From IMG/VR virus record IMGVR_UViG_2703718859_000027: a stretch of DNA of 10,574 nt; one strand, 5' to 3'. How positions within the stretch are numbered: position 1 is the stretch's first letter; every line of letters starts with the position of its first letter. The notes under the pieces are model-generated. The model worked only from the letters and a program-made list of their open reading frames with translations, made no database searches and was not told the DNA's origin. This document shows, in pieces, positions 1 to 8,786 of this stretch. Source of the stretch: a virus (taxonomy: Duplodnaviria; Heunggongvirae; Uroviricota; Caudoviricetes). A program made the position numbers and the translations under genes.

Positions 1-798
1 TTAATGAACATTCGTCGCCGAAAACGAGTCTGTATCATTAGTGCGATGCAGTCTCTGCAAAGGATCTTGTTGATAAAATTGGCAGAAACGTTGCCACAAT
101 GAAGGGAAACGAGGAGCAAAAAGTTCTGGGGCGCTAAAGAAATATTCAGAAAGTACGGCAAAACATTCAGCAGGATCACTGGCAGCATAAGCATCAATGC
201 TCGCCGCATTCTCGCCAACTAATTCGATTTCTTCCTGAATGTTGTTCATTGCAGCATGAAGATCGTGTTCCCAGCCAGCAACCTCACGCAACGGAATAAA
301 GGGAACTCCGCTGGCGCGATCGCCGTTACGGGTGTCCAGCTTATGAGCGACTTCATGAATAATCAGGTTAAAACCAGAAGCATCAAAAGAATCTTGTATA
401 TCCAACCAGTTCAAAACGATAGGCCCTTGCTGCCAGCTCTGACCTGACTGAACAATACGTTGGTTATGCACCAGACCGATATCGTCTTCCCATTCATCAT
501 CGACCACAAATGGCGCAGGATAAATTAAGACTTCATGAAAACCATCCAGCCATTCCAGTCCTAACTCCAGAACGGGTAGGCAAAATAGAAGTGCTATCCG
601 GCAGCTTCTTAATGAATCCAGTTCAAAGCCCTGTAAAGGAACAAGCCGCTTTTGCTGTAAAAAACGTTCGGCAAGAGTGACTAATTTGCTTTGTTCCTGT
701 TCCGTCAGACACGTTAAAAGGGGGATCGATAGTGCTTCCTGCCAGGGAAGGGCAGTTTGATGTGCTGATTCTTGTACTTTCCAGGGCCACTTAATCAT
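1..798 (-). CDS. mtfA: MtfA (Mlc titration factor A / YeeI), zinc-peptidase-like host gene flanking the prophage
   Basis: Minus-strand ORF whose translation from the ATG at 798..796 begins [23 protein letters not shown], which I recognise as E. coli MtfA (265 aa). It contains an HExxH motif ([10 protein letters not shown]). The track ORF runs to 837, but that is an in-frame upstream extension with no start codon. Stop TAA at 3..1. Confidence 0.93.
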
Positions 799-891
799 CG
801 TTTTGCTCGCAAACTCGTCACTTGAACAAAATTGCACGGACAGGGACTGTTAAAATGCCAAATTTCCTGGCATCATGGCAACCATCTGAAC

Positions 892-981
892 GGAGAGATG
901 CCGGAGCGGCTGAACGGACCGGTCTCGAAAACCGGAGTGGGGGCAACTCCACCGGGGGTTCAAATCCCCCTCTCTCCGCCA
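892..981 (+). tRNA. serU: tRNA-Ser (anticodon CGA), class II tRNA with long variable arm; prophage attachment target
   Basis: 90 nt starting GGAGAGATGCCGGAGCGGCTGAACGG and ending CTCTCTCCGCCA. Acceptor stem GGAGAGA/TCTCTCC, anticodon stem CCGGT/ACCGG with loop CTCGAAA (anticodon CGA), long variable arm, T-arm GGGGG-TTCAAAT-CCCCC, discriminator G plus encoded CCA. Matches my memory of E. coli serU, which lies next to mtfA. Confidence 0.93.
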
Positions 982-1027: not shown

Positions 1028-1059
1028 TTGGAATTACTTGGAATATTTTGTTGGAATAT
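1028..1059. repeat. Three direct copies of (C/G)TTGGAAT(A/T)T at the 3' end of int; candidate arm-type Int binding sites
   Basis: cTTGGAATta (1028-1037), cTTGGAATAT (1038-1047), gTTGGAATAT (1050-1059), about 50-80 bp from the tRNA 3' end. Function is inferred only. Confidence 0.35.
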
Positions 1060-2059
1060 TCTGGGGTAATGGTACATCCAGTGTGGGTGAGATCTTTACT
1101 TTTCTATCATAGATTAGCACCTGTCCTTCGGTCTTGTGACCAGAGAAAAGTTGCTTATCCCGGCTACTACCTTCGTAATCTGATATCCCCTTGGCTTTAA
1201 GGTCATGGAATGTAAAATCCGTCGCGATCCCTGATATTTGTCCAGCCAAATTTCTTGCCTCAACCCACATTTCATTAAATCCTTTATACATGTAACGGTT
1301 GCCGTACTGATTGCTGATTACATAGGCTGACTTGGGTAGCTGTTTAGCTTTTTCTATAACTGATTGCAGACGGGGAGTCCAGGCTTTTATCTGTTTCTTT
1401 CCTGTTTTACCTTGCTGGATAAAGATCCCGTCGTTTCCGATCTGTTCCCATTTCAGAGACAACACATCGGAAATCCTTGCTGCGCACAGGTATGCAATTT
1501 CCATTGCGATAAAAACAGGCACAGGAGCCACGCTTAATACGGCCTGGTATTCTTTGTCAGTCACATAGCGCTCTCGGTTTTTGGCCTTGAATTTACTTAC
1601 ACCGGTACAAGGATTAGCCTTTACATACCCTCGTTCATACCCCCAACTGTAAACGCGTGACATGCTGCTTTTTTCATGGTTTGCCTGCGTTTTACTCTGC
1701 TCGCCCCTTTTGTCCATGTATCGTCTGATGTGCTCTGGTTTTACAGAATCGGCCAGCACCTTACCAAATACGGCCAGCAGCTTTTTTTGATGTTGCAGAT
1801 AATCTTTTTGCGTTCTGGGACTAAGATCGCTGTAATAGGCGCTGGCGAGAAATTTTTCCCACAAACGCCCAAATGTCATTGCCCGATCGCGATGGTTAAT
1901 TGTTTCTTCGTACTTTTTCCATAATGCGGCTAAACCATCCTCGATTGCAGTTAAGGTTACAGATTCTCTGGATGTCGGTTTCCATACATAACTATATTTA
2001 TTGGGGTATACCTTTGGCGGTAATTTTTCGTGTTCGGGATTTTTCCTTCGTCTTCCCAT
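1034..2059 (-). CDS. Phage integrase, tyrosine recombinase (lambda Int family)
   Basis: 341-aa ORF; N-terminus MGRRRKNPEHEKLPPKVYPNKYSY resembles lambda Int (MGRRRSHERRDLPPNLY). C-terminal catalytic region FHDLKAKGISD ... GHKTEGQVLIYDRK contains the H-x-x-R-like and HK...Y tyrosine-recombinase signature. ATG at 2059..2057, stop at 1036..1034. Confidence 0.93.
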   Translation of the reverse strand: MGRRRKNPEHEKLPPKVYPNKYSYVWKPTSRESVTLTAIEDGLAALWKKYEETINHRDRAMTFGRLWEKFLASAYYSDLSPRTQKDYLQHQKKLLAVFGKVLADSVKPEHIRRYMDKRGEQSKTQANHEKSSMSRVYSWGYERGYVKANPCTGVSKFKAKNRERYVTDKEYQAVLSVAPVPVFIAMEIAYLCAARISDVLSLKWEQIGNDGIFIQQGKTGKKQIKAWTPRLQSVIEKAKQLPKSAYVISNQYGNRYMYKGFNEMWVEARNLAGQISGIATDFTFHDLKAKGISDYEGSSRDKQLFSGHKTEGQVLIYDRKVKISPTLDVPLPQNIPTKYSK

Positions 2060-2320: not shown

Positions 2321-4759
2321 TTAAAAATCAGCCTGACTCGGGAACAGTTTTTGCCAGATAGCTGAAACGTATTTTGCCTGGTAACGCGCATCGTGCAGGG
2401 CATTATGGCGTTCACCCTCAAATGTGGTGACGTTGCGGGCATCGAAATCCATCACCAACCCCAGAGCGACCATCGTTCTTACATCGCGATCATTGGTGTA
2501 ACGCCACGGGCAGGGGATCTCCTGCCGTTCATATGAACGGCGTAAAATCACGTTGTCGAAGTTGGCTCCATTTCCCCAGACCTGAACAAAAAACTCACCG
2601 GAGTTTTCGTCTATAAATTCCCGTAATTGTAAAAGCGCATCATCAAGCGGTATTCGATCAGCTAAAATGGCGGCACGGGCTTCGCCAGAGCGTTGAAGCC
2701 ACCATTCGATGGTGCTTATGTCTACAGTGCCGCCACATGTACCCATATCAATTATTTTGCTGAATTCAGGCCCCTGCTCTCCGGTTTGTGGATCGAAAAA
2801 TACAGCGCCTATTGAGGCTATTGGTGCGTCAGGATTTTTGCCCATTGTTTCAAGGTCAATCATCAGATGGTGCCACAACCTGTTGGTGGATGTGATTTCA
2901 CGATGACCGTTCACCTTAATTAAGGGATTTGCTGTCTCGCCTGTTTCATTATTGCCATTGGCATGTTGATCGCCTTCGGTGCACTCCTTGTTCGGGAGTC
3001 CGGCACTTTCCATTTCCTCCGGATCTTTTTCCCGTGCTTCATCCTGGCTTTCTTCGTTGAATGTCTCCTGGTAGGTTGCGTCACCCATCACTGCGCCACA
3101 ATCAGGGCAGTTACCACCACCAGTCTGATTGCATGCGGTACAAACTTTTTCCTCTTCCTGTTGCACTACTGGTTCAGGTTGTTTCGTTTCTGGCTCGTTT
3201 TGTAACGCATTTGGGCTGTTTTGTTCCGCTTTCTGACCGTTCTGTTCCGTTTCTTGCTGGTTCTGGTTCACAGAATCGCAGGTTTCAATCCCCTTAACCC
3301 ATTTTGGATCATTCGGGTCGCTAATCCCTTCAACAAACTCACCACGAGAAGCGGCAAGCAATTTGTCGGCATCTGGTCGACTGATGTCTGCTGCCTCCAT
3401 AATTTTATTTACTTCTTCAGCAGTAACTTTTACCTGTGACTTGTCATCCAGCGGCTGCGGGTCCTGATGATGTTCAACTGTATCCGCTGCCATTGTTTCA
3501 GCCGTTGCCTGTTCATCTGCCATTGCGCCAGATGGTTGCGGGTTTTCTTCATTATTTTTTTCTTCTTCTGTTTTGCACTCAGCAGCCAGTCCGCCGTTAA
3601 TTTCTTCCAGGATATCTTTTTCCGGTGTATGCCGGGCAGCCGTGAGAGTTTCAGTTGTGGGATTCTCGTGATCGGTCTCTGTCAGGTTGGCATTGATATA
3701 CCCCTGAAGACGTCCCGGGTAGTGATAAAACTCAGGGGGGGCGCTCCGGATAAGTGCAAAAATAGCTGCGCGGGAATAGTCCAGGATACCAGGGGTTGCG
3801 CGAAGTGCTGGGGACCATTCCCTGAACGGACTTTCTTTTTTCAGGACGATTTCTTTTGCGCGACGATAAACGCTCACGGGTATTTCATAAATATTAAAAT
3901 CCATCGGAAGTGTGGCTGCTGCAATCTCCACATCCAGAGTATCGAGGGTGTGTACTAAATCAGGATTACGATCCGTTTTATTTCCGCCACCGGCATTTGC
4001 ACCGGAAGCCGTGCGGGTGATGCGAGAAACACGATTTCCTTTCATCCACTCTTTTGTCAGCAGACCTCGATCGGTATAGTCAGCGTCCAGGTATGCTTCG
4101 AAAAAAGCAGTCATTAACCCCAGACTGGAATTAACGGGATTAGGGAAAACTTTGTCTGTGTCGCGTACCAGTTTATGAAGGTCGCGAATCTCCAGCGGGT
4201 CGAGCAGCTTTGTGTTGTGGGAAATAGCCAGGGCAGTAACAGCCGGCAGTTCTTCAGCTCGTGCGATATGTAATGCCTGAAGTTCTTCCCGTGAAACGTG
4301 CGTTACCGGTTTTTCGCTGCCATGTTGCGCAAGCCAGCGAATGGGCAGTTCCTGACCGGAAATCGGCAGGAGCATATTATCCTCAATCTCAGCCATGTTT
4401 TCGCCATTGACGTTGGTATTGTCAGTGCTGGCTGGTTTGTCCTGAACTGAGGGGGAGGGCGCTATAAATATCATTGTGATGCCATCTTCCCCGCCTTTTT
4501 CATAGCGGTTGCAGAATTCAGTATCAAACACGCCTTCCGGTGGAAGGTCATTCACAACGGGGAAATGGACGCGGACGGGTTTTTTGAAATCATCTGCGTC
4601 GTAGCCTGCCTCGTCCATTGCAACAACGCACCGTGAGATGGCAACAGATAATTTTTTTGCTGTAGTCCAGTAAAAACCTCCTTTAATCCCAAGGCGTTTT
4701 CTGACCTTGTCATTTTTTGCTTCGCAATATAGCGAAAATTCTTCTTTATCAGTGCTCAT
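2321..4759 (-). CDS. Large prophage exonuclease: unknown N-terminal domain, acidic disordered linker with CxxC...CxxC zinc-ribbon-like motif, C-terminal DnaQ-like DEDDh 3'-5' exonuclease domain
   Basis: 812-aa ORF with ATG at 4759..4757 and GAGGT Shine-Dalgarno 6 nt upstream. C-terminal motifs MIDLETMG (Exo I, DxE), [12 protein letters not shown] (Exo II) and [10 protein letters not shown] (Exo III, H-x4-D). Central low-complexity region rich in E/Q/N/T, with [16 protein letters not shown]. Occupies the exo/recE slot between xis and the kil-like genes. Confidence 0.85.
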
Positions 4760-4851
4760 GGATAAACCTCATAACTATTTTAAGGTTGTACGAACCCCTG
4801 CCATTGCTGGCATGCTTAATCAACGGGTATGGCGTTAATACGGCTGCTGGG

Positions 4852-5040
4852 TTATCCAGCCGGTGTTTCGTTATTCAGGTACAGCGATACTTTTTTTAAC
4901 GGGAGGCATTCACCAGAAATTTTTTGCTCGTCTCTTGCCTGGAGGCAGGATTCTTTACTGGCATAAATTCCGGTAATCACATTCTGTGATTCACCCGTTA
5001 TAAGAAAAACCGTCATCACCAGTGCAAATGCTGAAGTCAT
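4852..5040 (-). CDS. Small secreted/membrane protein, YdfD-like (Qin prophage lysis-protein family) candidate
   Basis: 62-aa ORF with hydrophobic N-terminus MTSAFALVMTVFLITG (signal-peptide-like). Its ATG (5040..5038) overlaps the dicB stop (ATGA), as for ydfD downstream of dicB in Qin. Family assignment is from memory of YdfD, not alignment. Confidence 0.6.
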   Translation of the reverse strand: MTSAFALVMTVFLITGESQNVITGIYASKESCLQARDEQKISGECLPLKKVSLYLNNETPAG

Positions 5041-5225
5041 TGACGTTCTCCGAAAATACCAAGTTCAAGAAGGGCAATTCTGGAGAGTATGGAATTATCA
5101 TTGAGAAGATAAGGCTCATATTTTCTCATCTTAATGGCATCTTCAGTAAACTCCCGGTTACTGAGCAGAACACCAATATCAAAACACCCTTCAGACGTAT
5201 TAACGTTTGGTAATAACGTTTCCAT
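5037..5225 (-). CDS. dicB: DicB-like cell-division inhibitor (MinC-dependent FtsZ-ring inhibitor of Qin/Kim prophage type)
   Basis: 62-aa ORF METLLPNVNTSEGCFDIGVLLSNREFTEDAIKMRK; N-terminal half closely matches E. coli K-12 DicB (MKTLLPNVNTSEGCFEIGV...FTEDAINKRK, from memory). GAGGA Shine-Dalgarno upstream. Confidence 0.85.
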   Translation of the reverse strand: METLLPNVNTSEGCFDIGVLLSNREFTEDAIKMRKYEPYLLNDNSILSRIALLELGIFGERQ

Positions 5226-5235
5226 TATCGCGTCC

Positions 5236-5793
5236 TCAACAATGAATTTTTAGTAATTGCTCCACAGTCATATTTTTAATTGCGCTCCGGTTTACAAGAG
5301 TCCAGCCTTGTTTCTCCAGATAAAACTGGAAGGTATCCAGGGTGCAGACCATTGCACCATCAGGAACGGTTTCAGTGAATTTGATATTGCCGTGTTCGTC
5401 GAGACGGATAACCAGGGTACGTCCGTCCCCGTGAATCATTTTGTCGGGAGACGGGGCGTTATTCTGGCGCAGTTCTTTCTCCATGCGATCGAACTCAGCG
5501 ATGTAGGCTTCTTTAAATGCAGCGGCTTTTTTGCCGGTGAAGCCCATCACCAGGAAAACGAAGCCGTTTTTGGTGATTTGGTACATAGGGAGTTTGCGCC
5601 CGGTTGAGTCGGTATATTCACTGGGCGAAAAATTTCGCTCAGTGAATTCTGCTGAACAGTCTAGACGTGAAATTTTTGCCAGTACATCTTTGTGTGGTTT
5701 CCGGAAATACTCGGCAACAGCTAAAGAGGATGTAACAGCACGCCCATTGGCGATAGTAATTTCAGGGTGAGAAAGGGCAGGGATAGTAGCCAT
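5236..5793 (-). CDS. Rha-family phage regulatory protein (N-terminal pRha domain plus about 85-aa C-terminal domain)
   Basis: Segment ITIANGRAVTSSLAVAEYFRKPHKDVLAKI...KLPMYQITKNGFVFLVMGFTGKKAAAFKEAYIAEFDRME matches the Rha/pRha domain (memory of PF09669). Start chosen at ATG 5793..5791 (MATIPALSHPE...) because a perfect GGAGG lies 8 nt upstream (5806..5802). The track ORF extends in frame to an ATG at 6087, so a 283-aa alternative exists. Confidence 0.8.
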   Translation of the reverse strand: MATIPALSHPEITIANGRAVTSSLAVAEYFRKPHKDVLAKISRLDCSAEFTERNFSPSEYTDSTGRKLPMYQITKNGFVFLVMGFTGKKAAAFKEAYIAEFDRMEKELRQNNAPSPDKMIHGDGRTLVIRLDEHGNIKFTETVPDGAMVCTLDTFQFYLEKQGWTLVNRSAIKNMTVEQLLKIHC

Positions 5794-5957
5794 GATGGCA
5801 GCCTCCATGATGAATTTCATTAACTCACCACCGGAGGTAGCAATCTCATGGGTGGTGAGACGCACAGGGTTGCTACAACCGGTCATCATGGAACCCGGCC
5901 AGCCTTGCGGCTGCCCTGCACGCCCCACCATAATCTGAATGTGGCTGTGCATTACGC

Positions 5958-5982
5958 ATAAAAAAACCGCCTGAGCGCGGTT
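5958..5982 (-). terminator. Candidate rho-independent terminator (minus strand)
   Basis: Minus-strand RNA reads AACCGC-GCUCAG-GCGGUU followed by UUUUUAU. It lies inside the in-frame upstream extension of the Rha ORF and downstream of dicF. Confidence 0.45.
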
Positions 5983-6202
5983 ATGCGCCATGATGAACAT
6001 CGGGGTAGCAATCCCGGCACCCGCTTTATGAGGTGCAGGTGCACTATAATTCCACCCGTTCTGGTTTTCAATAGCTACATTCAACATTTTCTCTTACCTT
6101 TCATCACCGAAGTGAACTTTGTCGATGCAGTGCCTGGTGCCTCCAGGTGACGTTAACCAGTTAACAATTAACGCCGGAATACAGAAGTATGCCCGTTACG
6201 CC

Positions 6203-6227
6203 CCGTAAAAGACCACTTTACGGTTTT
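6203..6227 (+). terminator. Terminator-like hairpin plus T-run on the plus strand
   Basis: CCGTAAA-agaccac-TTTACGG followed by TTTT on the plus strand (7-bp stem). No plus-strand gene is upstream, so its role is unclear. Confidence 0.3.
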
Positions 6228-6278
6228 AACTGTTCCGCGTGCGCTTAGCCGCATTCACCGCATCACAAAATTCACTTT

Positions 6279-6331
6279 AAAAAGGGTGGCAGAGCAGTCA
6301 CGGAGTAGAACTGATGCCACCAAAGACTACA
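6279..6331 (-). ncRNA. dicF: DicF-like sRNA (ftsZ-targeting antisense sRNA of Qin-type prophages); 5' seed differs from K-12 DicF
   Basis: Minus-strand sequence CUUUGGUGGCAUCAGUUCUACUCCGUGACUGCUCUGCCACCCUUUUU matches the 3' two-thirds of K-12 DicF (…GUUUGGCGGUAUCAGUUUUACUCCGUGACUGCUCUGCCGCCC, from memory), including the terminal hairpin GGUGGCA…UGCCACC plus U-run. Sits upstream of dicB as in Qin. The 5' boundary is approximate. Confidence 0.8.
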
Positions 6332-6799
6332 CATGGGTATTGTGGCGGGGCTGTCACTTAAGCGTATGGTCAACCTGACAACCCGGTGCATTTTCTGGAG
6401 CAATGGAGGAAACCCCAGCCATACTTACCGCCGCGCCATTTCGCGGATTGCCACAACCGGAAGCGCACGGTCGAAGAAATCTAACGACAAGCCTTCTAAG
6501 GGAAAGAGCTTCGCCGTACGCTTTCGCGTTGTGTGCCTGCTTTTAACCACGTCAGGCGAGGTGGTTTCCGTCGTTCCCCAACGACAGGAAATCTGTATAA
6601 TCTGGATATCCCCAACAACAGGAAGGTGTTTTATATGGTGGTTCAAAAGAATTGTTCAGGTACTGGTAAGCCTGCGGACAGGGCGGACATTCCGAATACC
6701 AGGAAACATATACCTGAGAAAAACATACGACCAAAACCATCTCCAGCTCCTTCAGAGGAGAGGGGGAACAGCAACAATCAAGCAAGCAGGTGATGATAT

Positions 6800-7246
6800 A
6801 TGGACCGGGATGATATTCTTGACAGGGTTTTATATGGCTATTTTCTTGAACAACTATTCTCTGTAGCGACTGGTCGTCTCGATAAACTTCTCTCAGTGGT
6901 GAGTATTATCCTCGGTTCATCTGTCATTGGTGGATTTATTCCTGAAGTTTCTGGAGTTCTCATTGTTGTGATAGCAACCGTTCAAACGATTTACGGATTC
7001 GGACAAAAGTCAGGTAACGCAATGAGAAAATCCGCAGAATATCTGCAGCTTTATGATGATGCAGAAAAATATTCCGATTCGGAATTGAAAATTCAGTTAA
7101 AGCTTCTGGAAAAAACAGATGATAATATTTGGTCGTCGCTTAAAGATATCGCAATCTTAAAAACCCGGATCAAAATAGGAATCTCCGTAGAACAACAAGA
7201 GAAACTGTCTGCAAAATCCAAATTGATGCGATTCCTTTGTGGTTAG
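6800..7246 (+). CDS. Small two-transmembrane-helix membrane protein of unknown function; candidate superinfection-exclusion / abortive-infection effector (SieB-like position, SLATT-like architecture)
   Basis: 148-aa ORF in an AT-rich segment, with AGGTGA Shine-Dalgarno 6 nt before the ATG at 6800. Two hydrophobic helices (LLSVVSIILGSSVIGGF and GVLIVVIATVQTIYGF) followed by a charged helical tail. Transcribed opposite to the surrounding early-left operon. Confidence 0.7.
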   Translation: MDRDDILDRVLYGYFLEQLFSVATGRLDKLLSVVSIILGSSVIGGFIPEVSGVLIVVIATVQTIYGFGQKSGNAMRKSAEYLQLYDDAEKYSDSELKIQLKLLEKTDDNIWSSLKDIAILKTRIKIGISVEQQEKLSAKSKLMRFLCG

Positions 7247-7770: not shown

Positions 7771-8058
7771 TCAGATAGAGAAGGGAAATTGTCGGCGAGC
7801 ATGTGTCACGCTTACAATCTCAATGCTTGAAGCAGCTACTCTGTACAGGATTATGTAGTTAGGGTGGGTCACTATCTCTCTCAACCCAGAAACCCGTTCG
7901 CTTGGTGGATATAGGTACGGATGCTCAGATAGAGGTAATACCGATGTTTCAATACGTATTTTAAGTCTACGCGCTGCCGGTGGGTTCTCCTTGGCGATGT
8001 AAGTTATGATCTGACGCAAATCATCGCGAGCAGATGGTAGCCATAAAATGGGCAACAT
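7771..8058 (-). CDS. parE: ParE/RelE-superfamily toxin (ParE2-like) of a three-component prophage toxin-antitoxin module
   Basis: 95-aa ORF MLPILWLPSARDDLRQIITYIAKENPPAARRL...YIILYRVAASSIEIVSVTHARR with the ParE/RelE pattern. Its start overlaps the antitoxin stop (ATGA at 8058). Confidence 0.88.
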   Translation of the reverse strand: MLPILWLPSARDDLRQIITYIAKENPPAARRLKIRIETSVLPLSEHPYLYPPSERVSGLREIVTHPNYIILYRVAASSIEIVSVTHARRQFPFSI

Positions 8059-8249
8059 TACTCGCTCCTGTTAGTTACAGCAATTTGAGCAATAAGATTT
8101 TCCATTTCAGCTATTACCTCGTCATGTGGAATTGCGGGGCGAGGGTCTGCAAGGCTTGACGCTACTTTAGCGCGCAACCATTCGTTGTAACTGTTTTCTT
8201 GTTCGATAGTTTCGAATTCTGAAACTATCGGAGAAAGGGCTGTACTCAT
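8058..8249 (-). CDS. paaA2: PaaA2-like antitoxin (small, intrinsically disordered ParE antitoxin)
   Basis: 63-aa ORF MSTALSPIVSEFETIEQENSYNEWLRAKVASSLADPRPAIPHDEV..., matching my memory of E. coli O157 PaaA2. Immediately upstream of and coupled to the ParE-like gene. Confidence 0.82.
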   Translation of the reverse strand: MSTALSPIVSEFETIEQENSYNEWLRAKVASSLADPRPAIPHDEVIAEMENLIAQIAVTNRSE

Positions 8250-8276
8250 GGCATAACTCCTCTTCTTGTACTGTGG

Positions 8277-8678
8277 TCACGCCCGGCGGCTTTTTTGTGC
8301 CGCCAGCCACCGGGCAATGGTTTCTTCCATTGATTTTTTTTTGTCTTTGATTTCTTGAAGCATTTTTTCTTGGTCCTCCTCAGGGAACGCACTAAAAGCC
8401 TGGAGTAATTCGCGTTGGCGAGGACCAATTTTCATCGTGTTAGGGGTGAACATTTGCTCCCCCTCTTCAGGAGGCAATAAAAACCAATGCAACGGATGCC
8501 CTGTAACCTCAACCAGTTTATCCAAACTTGAGGCTTTAGGTGTAGCCTTACCGCTGACCCATTGTTGAACAGTTTGTTGTGTCACACCAATTCTACGGGC
8601 CAGCTCAGCCTGGCTCCATCCAGTTTCCTGAAGAAGCTTGCTGATTCTGTACATCGATACTTCTAGGGCGCTCATCAT
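8277..8678 (-). CDS. paaR2: CI-like prophage repressor, HTH XRE family (PaaR2/RacR-like), no S24 peptidase domain
   Basis: 133-aa ORF with helix-turn-helix LLQETGWSQAELARRIGVTQQTVQQWVSG. Divergent from the cro-like ydaS and heads the antitoxin-toxin operon. Start is ambiguous between the ATG at 8678 (possibly leaderless; TAAAAT lies 7-12 nt upstream) and 8654. Confidence 0.85.
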   Translation of the reverse strand: MMSALEVSMYRISKLLQETGWSQAELARRIGVTQQTVQQWVSGKATPKASSLDKLVEVTGHPLHWFLLPPEEGEQMFTPNTMKIGPRQRELLQAFSAFPEEDQEKMLQEIKDKKKSMEETIARWLAAQKSRRA

Positions 8679-8714
8679 TATTCAATTTTACAGGTAAATA
8701 CTGTTAAAAGCATC

Positions 8715-8753
8715 ACAATAAAAAACTGTTGATCGCGTACAGTTTTTTATTGT
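8715..8753. promoter_or_regulatory. OR-like operator palindrome (ACAATAAAAAACTGT - 9 bp - ACAGTTTTTTATTGT) in the divergent repressor / cro-like intergenic region
   Basis: 15-bp arms 8715-8729 and 8739-8753 are exact reverse complements, and the half-site is nearly identical to the 7680-7720 palindrome. A second, weaker dyad TTTTACAG-N7-CTGTTAAAA is at 8690-8710. TATAGT (8764-8769) is a candidate -10 for ydaS. Confidence 0.6.
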
Positions 8754-8786
8754 AGCCTTTGCCTATAGTTTTTAGAGGAGGGCAAA

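Follow-up and report, generated by a model that had tools for sequence, protein, structure and literature searches.

A probable P4/P1-type RNA-immunity cassette between dicF and dicB in a Qin/Rac-type prophage

The window analysed here, the whole 10,574-nucleotide stretch of viral DNA of IMG/VR record IMGVR_UViG_2703718859_000027 (Caudoviricetes), represents a Qin/Rac-type prophage at tRNA-Ser(cga), adjoining mtfA. On its minus strand the gene for the small RNA (sRNA) DicF is followed by an open reading frame (ORF) of 283 amino acids (5236..6087), whose product contains a Rha domain, and then by dicB. The initial annotation had remarked that the Rha part of this frame begins behind a strong Shine-Dalgarno (SD) sequence (GGAGG at 5806..5802, 8 nt, ATG at 5793..5791), that the frame stays open without a stop for 98 codons upstream of that start, to an ATG at 6087..6085 with a poor SD, that this extension contains a hairpin and U-run, and that the gene is inserted between dicF and dicB; each of these observations was reproduced, the hairpin as a stem-loop at 5982..5965 with a T-run at 5966..5960. 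We report that the extension contains a putative promoter and two RNAs of known families, and that this prophage probably carries, at 6112..5251 in its dicB (PL-like) operon, an inserted RNA-immunity cassette of the P4/P1 type.

DicF (6284..6335, minus strand; Rfam RF00039, 61.1 bits vs a gathering threshold of 48) is the upstream neighbour of the cassette, is colinear with dicF of the K-12 Qin prophage, and is part of the backbone dicB operon, outside the cassette. BLAST comparison of the dicF-dicB region with K-12 Qin, where the dicF-dicB gap is 174 nt, shows colinearity over 6450..6113 and 5250..5121; since it stops at 6113 and resumes at 5250, about 860 bp (6112..5251) are extra relative to K-12 Qin. 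Both junctions have a short imperfect repeat, AAA(A/G)TTCA(T/C)T, and their inspection together with the BLAST result places the cassette of promoter, IsrK-like RNA, C4-like RNA and rha at approximately 5251..6112 on the minus strand. The rha stop codon sits in backbone, K-12-colinear sequence. The ATG of dicB (5037..5225, minus strand; Pfam DicB, 4e-37) follows 10 nt past that stop codon, with its SD within the 3' end of rha (region 5225..5238, minus strand), so the cassette lies upstream of dicB on the same transcript.

A scan with Rfam at gathering thresholds gave three full-length matches on the rha strand, isrK, C4 and DicF, the first two of which lie inside the ORF. The IsrK/seqA-like RNA (5960..6036, minus strand; RF01394, 64.7 bits vs gathering 50, E 2.4e-12) is preceded by a sigma-70-like promoter, TTGAAA-17-TATAGT (6043..6071, minus strand; 10/12 matches in a promoter scan), which is itself within the extension and whose predicted start fits isrK model position 1 at 6036. 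A promoter-like hexamer pair is present at the aligned position in the related loci described below and in Gifsy-1 and P4, and the window promoter is the counterpart of P4 PLE and Gifsy-1 PisrK. The hairpin noted initially, with its U-run, was recovered in a terminator scan as the intrinsic terminator of IsrK (5982..5965 and 5966..5960, minus strand); taken alone it cannot be told from chance, with 2 such sites predicted against 1.0 +/- 1.2 in shuffled sequence. The proposal that an sRNA or terminator is embedded in the extension and separates dicF from rha thus stands as far as the hairpin and the embedded RNA are concerned, with two RNAs and a promoter of their own found there, but the hairpin terminates IsrK and is not a separator belonging to dicF. 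Structural covariation of IsrK in the related loci is weak, in part because the terminator stems of two sequence classes are misaligned.

The C4/CI-like antisense RNA (5848..5935, minus strand; RF01695, 77.9 bits vs 45, E 2.6e-14) covers positions 1-87 of the 87 of the model. Its loop b' (GUUCCAUGAUGA, 5894..5883, minus strand) has its complement, UUCAUCAUGG, twice in the cassette: as b1 in IsrK (5997..5988) and as b2 (5814..5805) directly before and running into the SD GGAGG at 5806..5802. Its single-stranded segment a' (UGUAGCAA, 5877..5870, minus strand) likewise has two complements, GAUUGCUACC, namely a1 in the second hairpin of IsrK (6013..6004) and a2 at 5845..5836; all four target sites are on the minus strand, with positions taken from the motif coordinates. 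The order a1 b1 - a' b' - a2 b2, and a b2 that covers the ribosome-binding site, are as in the P1 c4 scheme (Citron and Schuster 1990, related in PMC7313666). The window's own b':b2 duplex has an energy of -17.1 kcal/mol. In the predicted fold of the read-through RNA, a1 and b1 pair in cis with a' and b' (z = -4.56), an arrangement that appears to resemble the "structure A" demonstrated for Gifsy-1 by Hershko-Shalev et al. (PMC4825925).

The same tandem of RNAs was found by BLAST against phage genomes in 223 phage records; our comparison set holds 21 related loci, 22 with the window; Gifsy-1 and P4 were considered in addition. (A scan of IMG/VR with a degenerate C4 core pattern returned 17 loci, real C4 and isrK matches being present in locus L008 alone, and BLAST in annotated phages was used instead. 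A protein search with the 98-amino-acid extension gave 42 matches, mostly partial "ash family" fragments, and was of no use for domain-architecture statistics.) isrK is followed by C4 in all 21 loci and in Gifsy-1 and P4. The spacing is about 100 nt in most loci, ranges over 93-123 nt among L008, D6 and two P88-type phages, and reaches 185 nt in P4. The C4 fold, a long closing stem and two hairpins, is kept across 19 sequences, with 99.8% of cells paired, compensatory double changes at 13 of the 27 pairs, and a covariation score of 0.489 vs 0.228 in shuffles and 0.05-0.08 for slid partners; none of 500 shuffles reached the observed values. The a and b segments vary widely over the 22 loci, occurring in many types that are re-assorted, yet each C4 fits its own targets: mean duplex energies within a locus vs across loci are -12.6 vs -5.6 kcal/mol for b':b1, -16.5 vs -7.2 for b':b2, -15.4 vs -9.4 for a':a1 and -12.2 vs -6.8 for a':a2, and the own target is top-ranked for C4 in most of the 22 loci.

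The short Rha-family coding sequence (5236..5793, minus strand; 185 amino acids, N-terminus MATIPALSHPEI) starts at a conserved SD-AUG block. The Rha domain occupies amino acids 119-204 of the long ORF (Pfam PF09669, 106.6 bits vs 29.9, E 1e-30; NCBIfam TIGR02681, 104.4 bits vs 45.95), and in PHROG the short coding sequence matches phrog_995 and phrog_518, and the PHROG families of the product are labelled "transcriptional regulator" and "anti-repressor"; on these domain matches the product is a Bro/Rha-type regulator. The block itself, GGAGGCTGCCATCATGGCTAC, consists of the SD, 8 nt and the AUG, followed by Ala-Thr codons. It is kept in all 18 lambdoid and E. coli prophage loci, starts icd in the P1-like phage D6 and kil in P4, and has a diverged counterpart at the same position in two P88-type phages and in Gifsy-1 anrP; among the aligned related loci L008 is without it. 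The N-termini of the window Rha, of P4 Kil (MATTLTPSHPEF) and of D6 Icd (MATIPTPTHSEF) are alike as well. Because this block and the N-terminus are shared over the relatives, ATG 5793 is the conserved start at this locus and, as predicted from the b2 overlap with its SD, the C4-regulated one.

In P4, seqA/isrK lies at 8692..8615 and CI/C4 at 8507..8420. The eta gene (199 amino acids, 8767..8168, minus strand) has its start 75 nt before isrK+1, reads in frame 0 and overlaps the ORF88 stop, and the kil AUG at 8365, 55 nt after C4, is in the block AGGAGGCTGCCATCATGGCTAC, 327 nt (a multiple of 3) from isrK+1. We have taken the P4 mechanism from the summary in PMC10111431 and checked it against the P4 sequence: as told there, eta contains a constitutive promoter, early termination is brought about by CI and seqA, read-through yields Kil as a truncated form, full-length Eta comes just from an upstream promoter and is coupled to the upstream gene, and translation of Eta prevents termination (summarising Forti et al. 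1999 J Bacteriol 181:5225). P4 and the window have the same two Rfam families in the same order, a constitutive-type promoter internal to the long ORF, a long ORF in the same frame relative to IsrK/seqA +1 (start at -75 in P4 and -51 in the window), and a short ORF that starts at the block 55 nt after C4/CI. As with eta and kil, the window's long ORF begins upstream of the internal promoter and reads through the RNAs into the short ORF. The two differ in payload, which is the 65-amino-acid Icd-like division inhibitor Kil in P4 and the 185-amino-acid Rha-domain protein in the window; in the seqA-CI spacer, which is 84 nt longer in P4; in the element, a satellite vs a lambdoid dicB operon; and in the start of the long ORF, which in P4 is coupled to ORF88, whereas no gene abuts ATG 6087 in the window, where the regulated upstream promoter would be that of the dicB operon. 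P4 is further reported to act through Rho-dependent termination at timm. We note that NCBIfam labels the Kil part of P4 Eta "Icd-like".

The immI region of P1 and P7 (c4-icd-ant) is represented in our set by D6, which shares with the window a C4 whose a' and b' are complementary to a1/b1 upstream and a2/b2 downstream, b2 over the SD, and first codons that read MATIP. In D6, however, the frame that spans the RNAs has 7 stops, and icd is a cistron of its own, apart from the antirepressor gene, whereas the window has no separate icd and the Rha domain follows directly. The isrK-orf45-anrP-isrJ locus of Salmonella Gifsy-1 shares with the window a promoter, an IsrK that ends in an intrinsic terminator, a read-through transcript with a C4-like RNA (STnc1160), and a Bro/antirepressor-type gene; its module lies between antQ and anrP, with IsrK complementary to the C4 region, and adjoins antQ in the late region, unlike the window copy in a PL-type operon. 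The Rfam family "c4-a1b1" also matches over Gifsy-1 isrK, and IsrK is thus the a1/b1 element. Binding of IsrK to Hfq, and its activation of the downstream gene in trans, have been demonstrated in Gifsy-1 only (PMC4825925). AnrP was considered as a close homologue of the window Rha and rejected, as the two are barely similar (23% over 75 amino acids, E 0.007); function is therefore not transferable beyond "Bro/Rha-type regulator". Judged by its sequence, the extension is a known kind of phage RNA switch, and its P4-like layout marks the window cassette as a new copy of the P4/P1/Gifsy-1-type system.

The same promoter-IsrK-C4-Rha/Ant module, with the same open frame, is also found in lambdoid PR operons (ST64B sb41, phiP27 L16, Stx phages, cdtI and others), at 61-89% identity over the RNA region. 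There it lies between cII/ymfL-DUF4222 and the replication genes, whereas the window copy lies between dicF and dicB in a leftward operon and has a different combination of a and b specificities. The long ORFs of these lambdoid versions are 277-385 amino acids in length and begin 228-360 nt ahead of isrK, in several cases where an upstream cII/ymfL-type gene has its stop. In another frame under them is a DUF4222 gene (59 amino acids, phrog_1343; 1290..1469 in locus L026, -211..-32 relative to isrK, and also present in L004, L025, L027, L028, L030, L032, L033 and L035), with its TGA within the -35 box. In phi191 (L029) a full-length sRNA-Xcc1 (RF02221, 79.6 bits) lies at 2523..2606, after the Rha gene and before an "anti-repressor" gene, a second RNA element of this region with a tie to Bro/Ant genes. 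The 5' edge of the window cassette (6112..6066, minus strand) aligns with the 3' end of the DUF4222 gene and reads ...ENVECSY*, its TGA inside the -35 hexamer TTGAAA; the similarity is weak, and this edge may be a remnant of an origin of the cassette in a lambdoid PR-operon copy.

The frame that starts at isrK position 1 is free of stops from isrK through C4 into the downstream gene in 18 of the 22 loci. The other two frames contain stops in nearly every locus (up to 6), though in three loci one of the two is free of them. In the 18 open loci isrK+1 and the AUG are 237, 243, 246 or 252 nt apart, all multiples of 3, and two lineages (Hafnia phage yong2 and P88) restore the frame through compensating non-triplet indels. 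As a null model, each alignment column was shuffled among 12 representatives, 2000 times. Frame 0, that of the long ORF, had 0 stops where 8.6 +/- 2.2 were expected, and 0/2000 shuffles gave a number as low, whereas the observed values were near expectation in frame 1 (29 observed, 25.8 expected) and frame 2 (46 observed, 45.7 expected). (A star-tree estimate of the expected new stops, P ~3e-8, was dropped in favour of the column shuffles, as it overstated independence.) The initial annotation had named synonymous-biased conservation of the extension as the sign of true coding; no such bias is present, the ratio of nonsynonymous to synonymous differences (pN/pS) being 0.88 in the long-ORF frame vs 0.89 and 0.97 in the other two. 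Stops appear to be selected against in this frame, and the peptide is not conserved as a protein; stop avoidance without synonymous bias means that selection, if there is any, is for passage of ribosomes and not for the peptide.

The long-frame ATG (6085..6087, minus strand) precedes the internal promoter and lies 51 nt before the IsrK +1; homology with P4 eta makes translation from it plausible. Several findings weigh against such translation. The sequence upstream of ATG 6087 offers just a weak AAGG/GAGA as SD, and, unlike in P4 eta, there is no abutting upstream gene for coupling: no ORF in the window has its end near 6087, the preceding stop in this frame is at -60, and dicF is followed by some 200 nt of non-coding sequence. 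The RNAs are kept with stops in this frame in four loci, D6 (isrK+1-to-AUG distance 265 nt), phi191 and phi349 (242 nt each) and one IMG/VR contig (234 nt), and also in Gifsy-1, where an in-frame TGA two codons before the orf45 ATG leaves no long frame. Stop avoidance comes mainly from the region between +106 and the AUG (5.6 expected stops), IsrK plus spacer contributing just 2.9, and 1.7 of the 8.6 expected stops come from one tetraloop codon under constraint from the RNA; the case for translation is therefore weaker for 6087 than for 5931 (below) or 5793. Amino-acid-level selection is, as said, absent from the extension. Nor do the lambdoid long ORFs, which had been considered as strong support for an Eta-like start, help here: the DUF4222 gene is under purifying selection across the stretch, with pN/pS of 0.15 in its frame vs 1.59 in the overlapping annotated long-ORF frame. 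Because of this overlap those annotations are no evidence for an upstream start, and the annotated "Rha/antirepressor" ORFs of 277-385 amino acids are probably over-extended.

It is accordingly possible, though on balance we do not favour it, that the extension is never translated from 6087, that ATG 5793 is the sole start, and that the long ORF is an annotation artefact held open by conservation of the RNAs and by Eta-type ancestry. Besides the points just given, the equal pN/pS in all three frames, the presence of a promoter and an intrinsic terminator inside a "coding" region, the over-extension of the lambdoid ORFs and the lack of significance of the stop avoidance upstream of +106 when taken alone (0 observed for 2.9 expected) are what such a history would leave behind. 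It does not account well for a stop deficit that is specific to one frame (0 vs 8.6 expected, with the others at expectation), for indels that are in frame on balance, including the non-triplet ones of yong2 and P88 and the additional 84 nt of P4, or for the identity of the frame with that of P4 eta, which is reported as translated (PMC10111431); a Rha-family coding sequence is moreover annotated over the extension in all of the 40 records drawn from the 403 matching E. coli genomes.

An ATG at the 5' end of C4 (5929..5931, minus strand) is, by alignment, the counterpart of the start of Gifsy-1 orf45, and in the window it is in frame with rha, 46 codons ahead of ATG 5793 with no intervening stop. 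A leader of the Gifsy-1 type, in which ribosomes start at 5931 and run into rha, giving a form 46 amino acids longer and/or opening the structure at 5793, is a reasonable candidate too, although we would not bet on it. Such a leader would account for a frame whose openness is maintained chiefly downstream of +106 (5.6 of the 8.6 expected stops), and in Gifsy-1 orf45, which begins at the homologous ATGGTGGGG at the C4 5' end, is translated and required for translation of anrP, IsrK activating in trans (Hershko-Shalev et al. 2016, PMC4825925). On the other hand, no recognisable SD precedes 5931, and since this ATG falls within the invariant C4 stem, the RNA by itself accounts for its conservation. 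The Gifsy-1 small ORF is, furthermore, a separate gene of 45 codons that overlaps the start of anrP (AUGA); such a separate small ORF was not found in the window, where the orf45 counterpart is fused in frame to rha.

That the extension is a genuine folded N-terminal protein domain contributing to Rha function is very improbable. Pfam Phage_ASH (PF10554) does match amino acids 14-109 of the long ORF (67.4 bits vs 26, E 1.8e-18), several PHROG families include the extension, and PGAP annotates the long protein. But the match in the window is exactly the translation of the RNA-bearing stretch, the domain covers the same region in P4, where it falls on amino acids 22-146 of Eta (L040), that is, on the translation of seqA, CI RNA and seqC, and the conservation of the family seems to stem from the RNA genes. 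Purifying selection in that frame was not found, local frameshifts are tolerated when the net frame is restored, and the variable parts are RNA specificity segments that co-vary with their RNA partners. The idea, raised in the initial annotation, of a decayed gene fusion or pseudogene remnant without current function can practically be dismissed: the cassette is an insertion relative to K-12 Qin, and some codons of a DUF4222-like gene may survive at its 5' edge, but the RNAs are full-length family members with covariation and targets intact, the frame is open in 18 of 22 diverse loci, and the region is present in 268 complete E. coli genomes (at least 80% coverage; 403 for the extension) at identities down to 83% with the coding sequence still annotated, in all 40 of the records sampled.

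From the RNAs, the structure, the co-varying complementarity, the P4 register and the stop avoidance computed here we infer a control scheme of the P4/P1 type, in which processing and repression, a polar effect on dicB, and long-form translation would act as follows. In the repressed prophage the internal promoter at 6071..6043 would fire, as by homology it should, and most transcripts would end at the IsrK terminator and yield an IsrK/seqA-like RNA of about 77 nt. Read-through transcripts would carry the C4/CI-like RNA, presumably released by processing (RNase P) as in P1, P4 and Gifsy-1, so as to repress the downstream cistron: its b' and a' would anneal to b2 and a2 just ahead of rha and mask the SD of ATG 5793, and Rha would for that reason not be translated. 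The untranslated rha RNA would be terminated early by polarity, with little transcription reaching dicB. The a1 and b1 sites would make IsrK a carrier of decoy copies of the targets that competes for C4, and we propose that for this reason the IsrK:C4 ratio sets the switch, as was shown experimentally for Gifsy-1 (PMC4825925). The frame through promoter, IsrK and C4 into rha would correspond by homology to P4 eta, rha taking the position that the nested kil has there. Once the promoter upstream of the operon is derepressed, ribosomes that initiate at 6087 or 5931 could translate through the terminator and the antisense targets, and their passage would override the RNA control.

A more far-reaching suggestion, which we make tentatively and regard as rather unlikely, is that the cassette is a second, RNA-based lock on the division inhibitor DicB, in which the C4 block of rha brings about polarity before dicB and, on derepression of the operon promoter, Eta-like translation across the IsrK terminator and the C4 targets allows dicB and recE to be transcribed. 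We note as a separate observation that the division-inhibitor gene dicB comes immediately after a cistron presumably under C4 control, a placing reminiscent of P1 c4->icd and P4 CI->kil.

The remainder of the window is as follows. mtfA (peptidase M90) occupies 1..837 on the minus strand and tRNA-Ser(cga) 892..981 on the plus strand, and the integrase gene (1034..2059) comes directly after the tRNA. The prophage genes are those for integrase, an xis-like protein, a RecE-like exonuclease and a DUF1482 protein, dicB, the cassette, dicF and a DUF1391 gene, and further ones for a PaaA2/ParE pair, a helix-turn-helix (HTH) repressor, YdaS/YdaT and replication. The exonuclease (812 amino acids, 2321..4759, minus strand) has the Exonuclease VIII N-terminal region at amino acids 51-189, and its C-terminus has an Rv2179c-like 3'-5' exoribonuclease domain (amino acids 630-802) instead of the canonical RecE nuclease domain. 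A plus-strand terminator-like hairpin with TTTTAA at 6203..6223, in the K-12-colinear part of the dicF-cassette spacer, could stop transcription antisense to the operon. Between dicF and the DUF1391 (ydfA-like) gene, on the opposite strand, is an ORF of 148 amino acids (6800..7246, plus strand) for which a Pfam match was not found; phrog_6315, of unknown function, is its sole match, it is "hypothetical" in the RefSeq record of a close relative, and it is possibly an accessory ("moron") gene. A PaaA2-type antitoxin and ParE toxin pair (7771..8249, minus strand) is inserted between the HTH repressor gene (8277..8678) and the DUF1391 gene in the leftward operon.

At least 80% of region 4850-6450 is present in 268 of 5426 complete E. 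coli genomes, and the extension alone is matched in 403, out of which the 40 annotation records mentioned above were sampled. In three homologous RefSeq records a "Rha family" protein of 283-284 amino acids is annotated, and the IsrK-like, C4-like and DicF RNAs are not. Users of such annotation miss the regulatory logic and may read Pfam "Ash" as a protein domain, though it is the translation of RNA genes. Conceptually the cassette adds nothing beyond what P4, P1 and Gifsy-1 have already shown. If the lock on DicB were real, it would have its counterparts in P1 c4->icd and P4 CI->kil, where division inhibitors are likewise gated, and the extension would be a "translate-to-override" device selected for the passage of ribosomes and not for its peptide. 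In a sizeable minority of E. coli, O157:H7, ST131 and IHE3034 among them, a P4/P1-type RNA switch probably lies immediately ahead of dicB, and the timing with which DicB, the exonuclease and the Rha-type regulator are produced could be affected by it.

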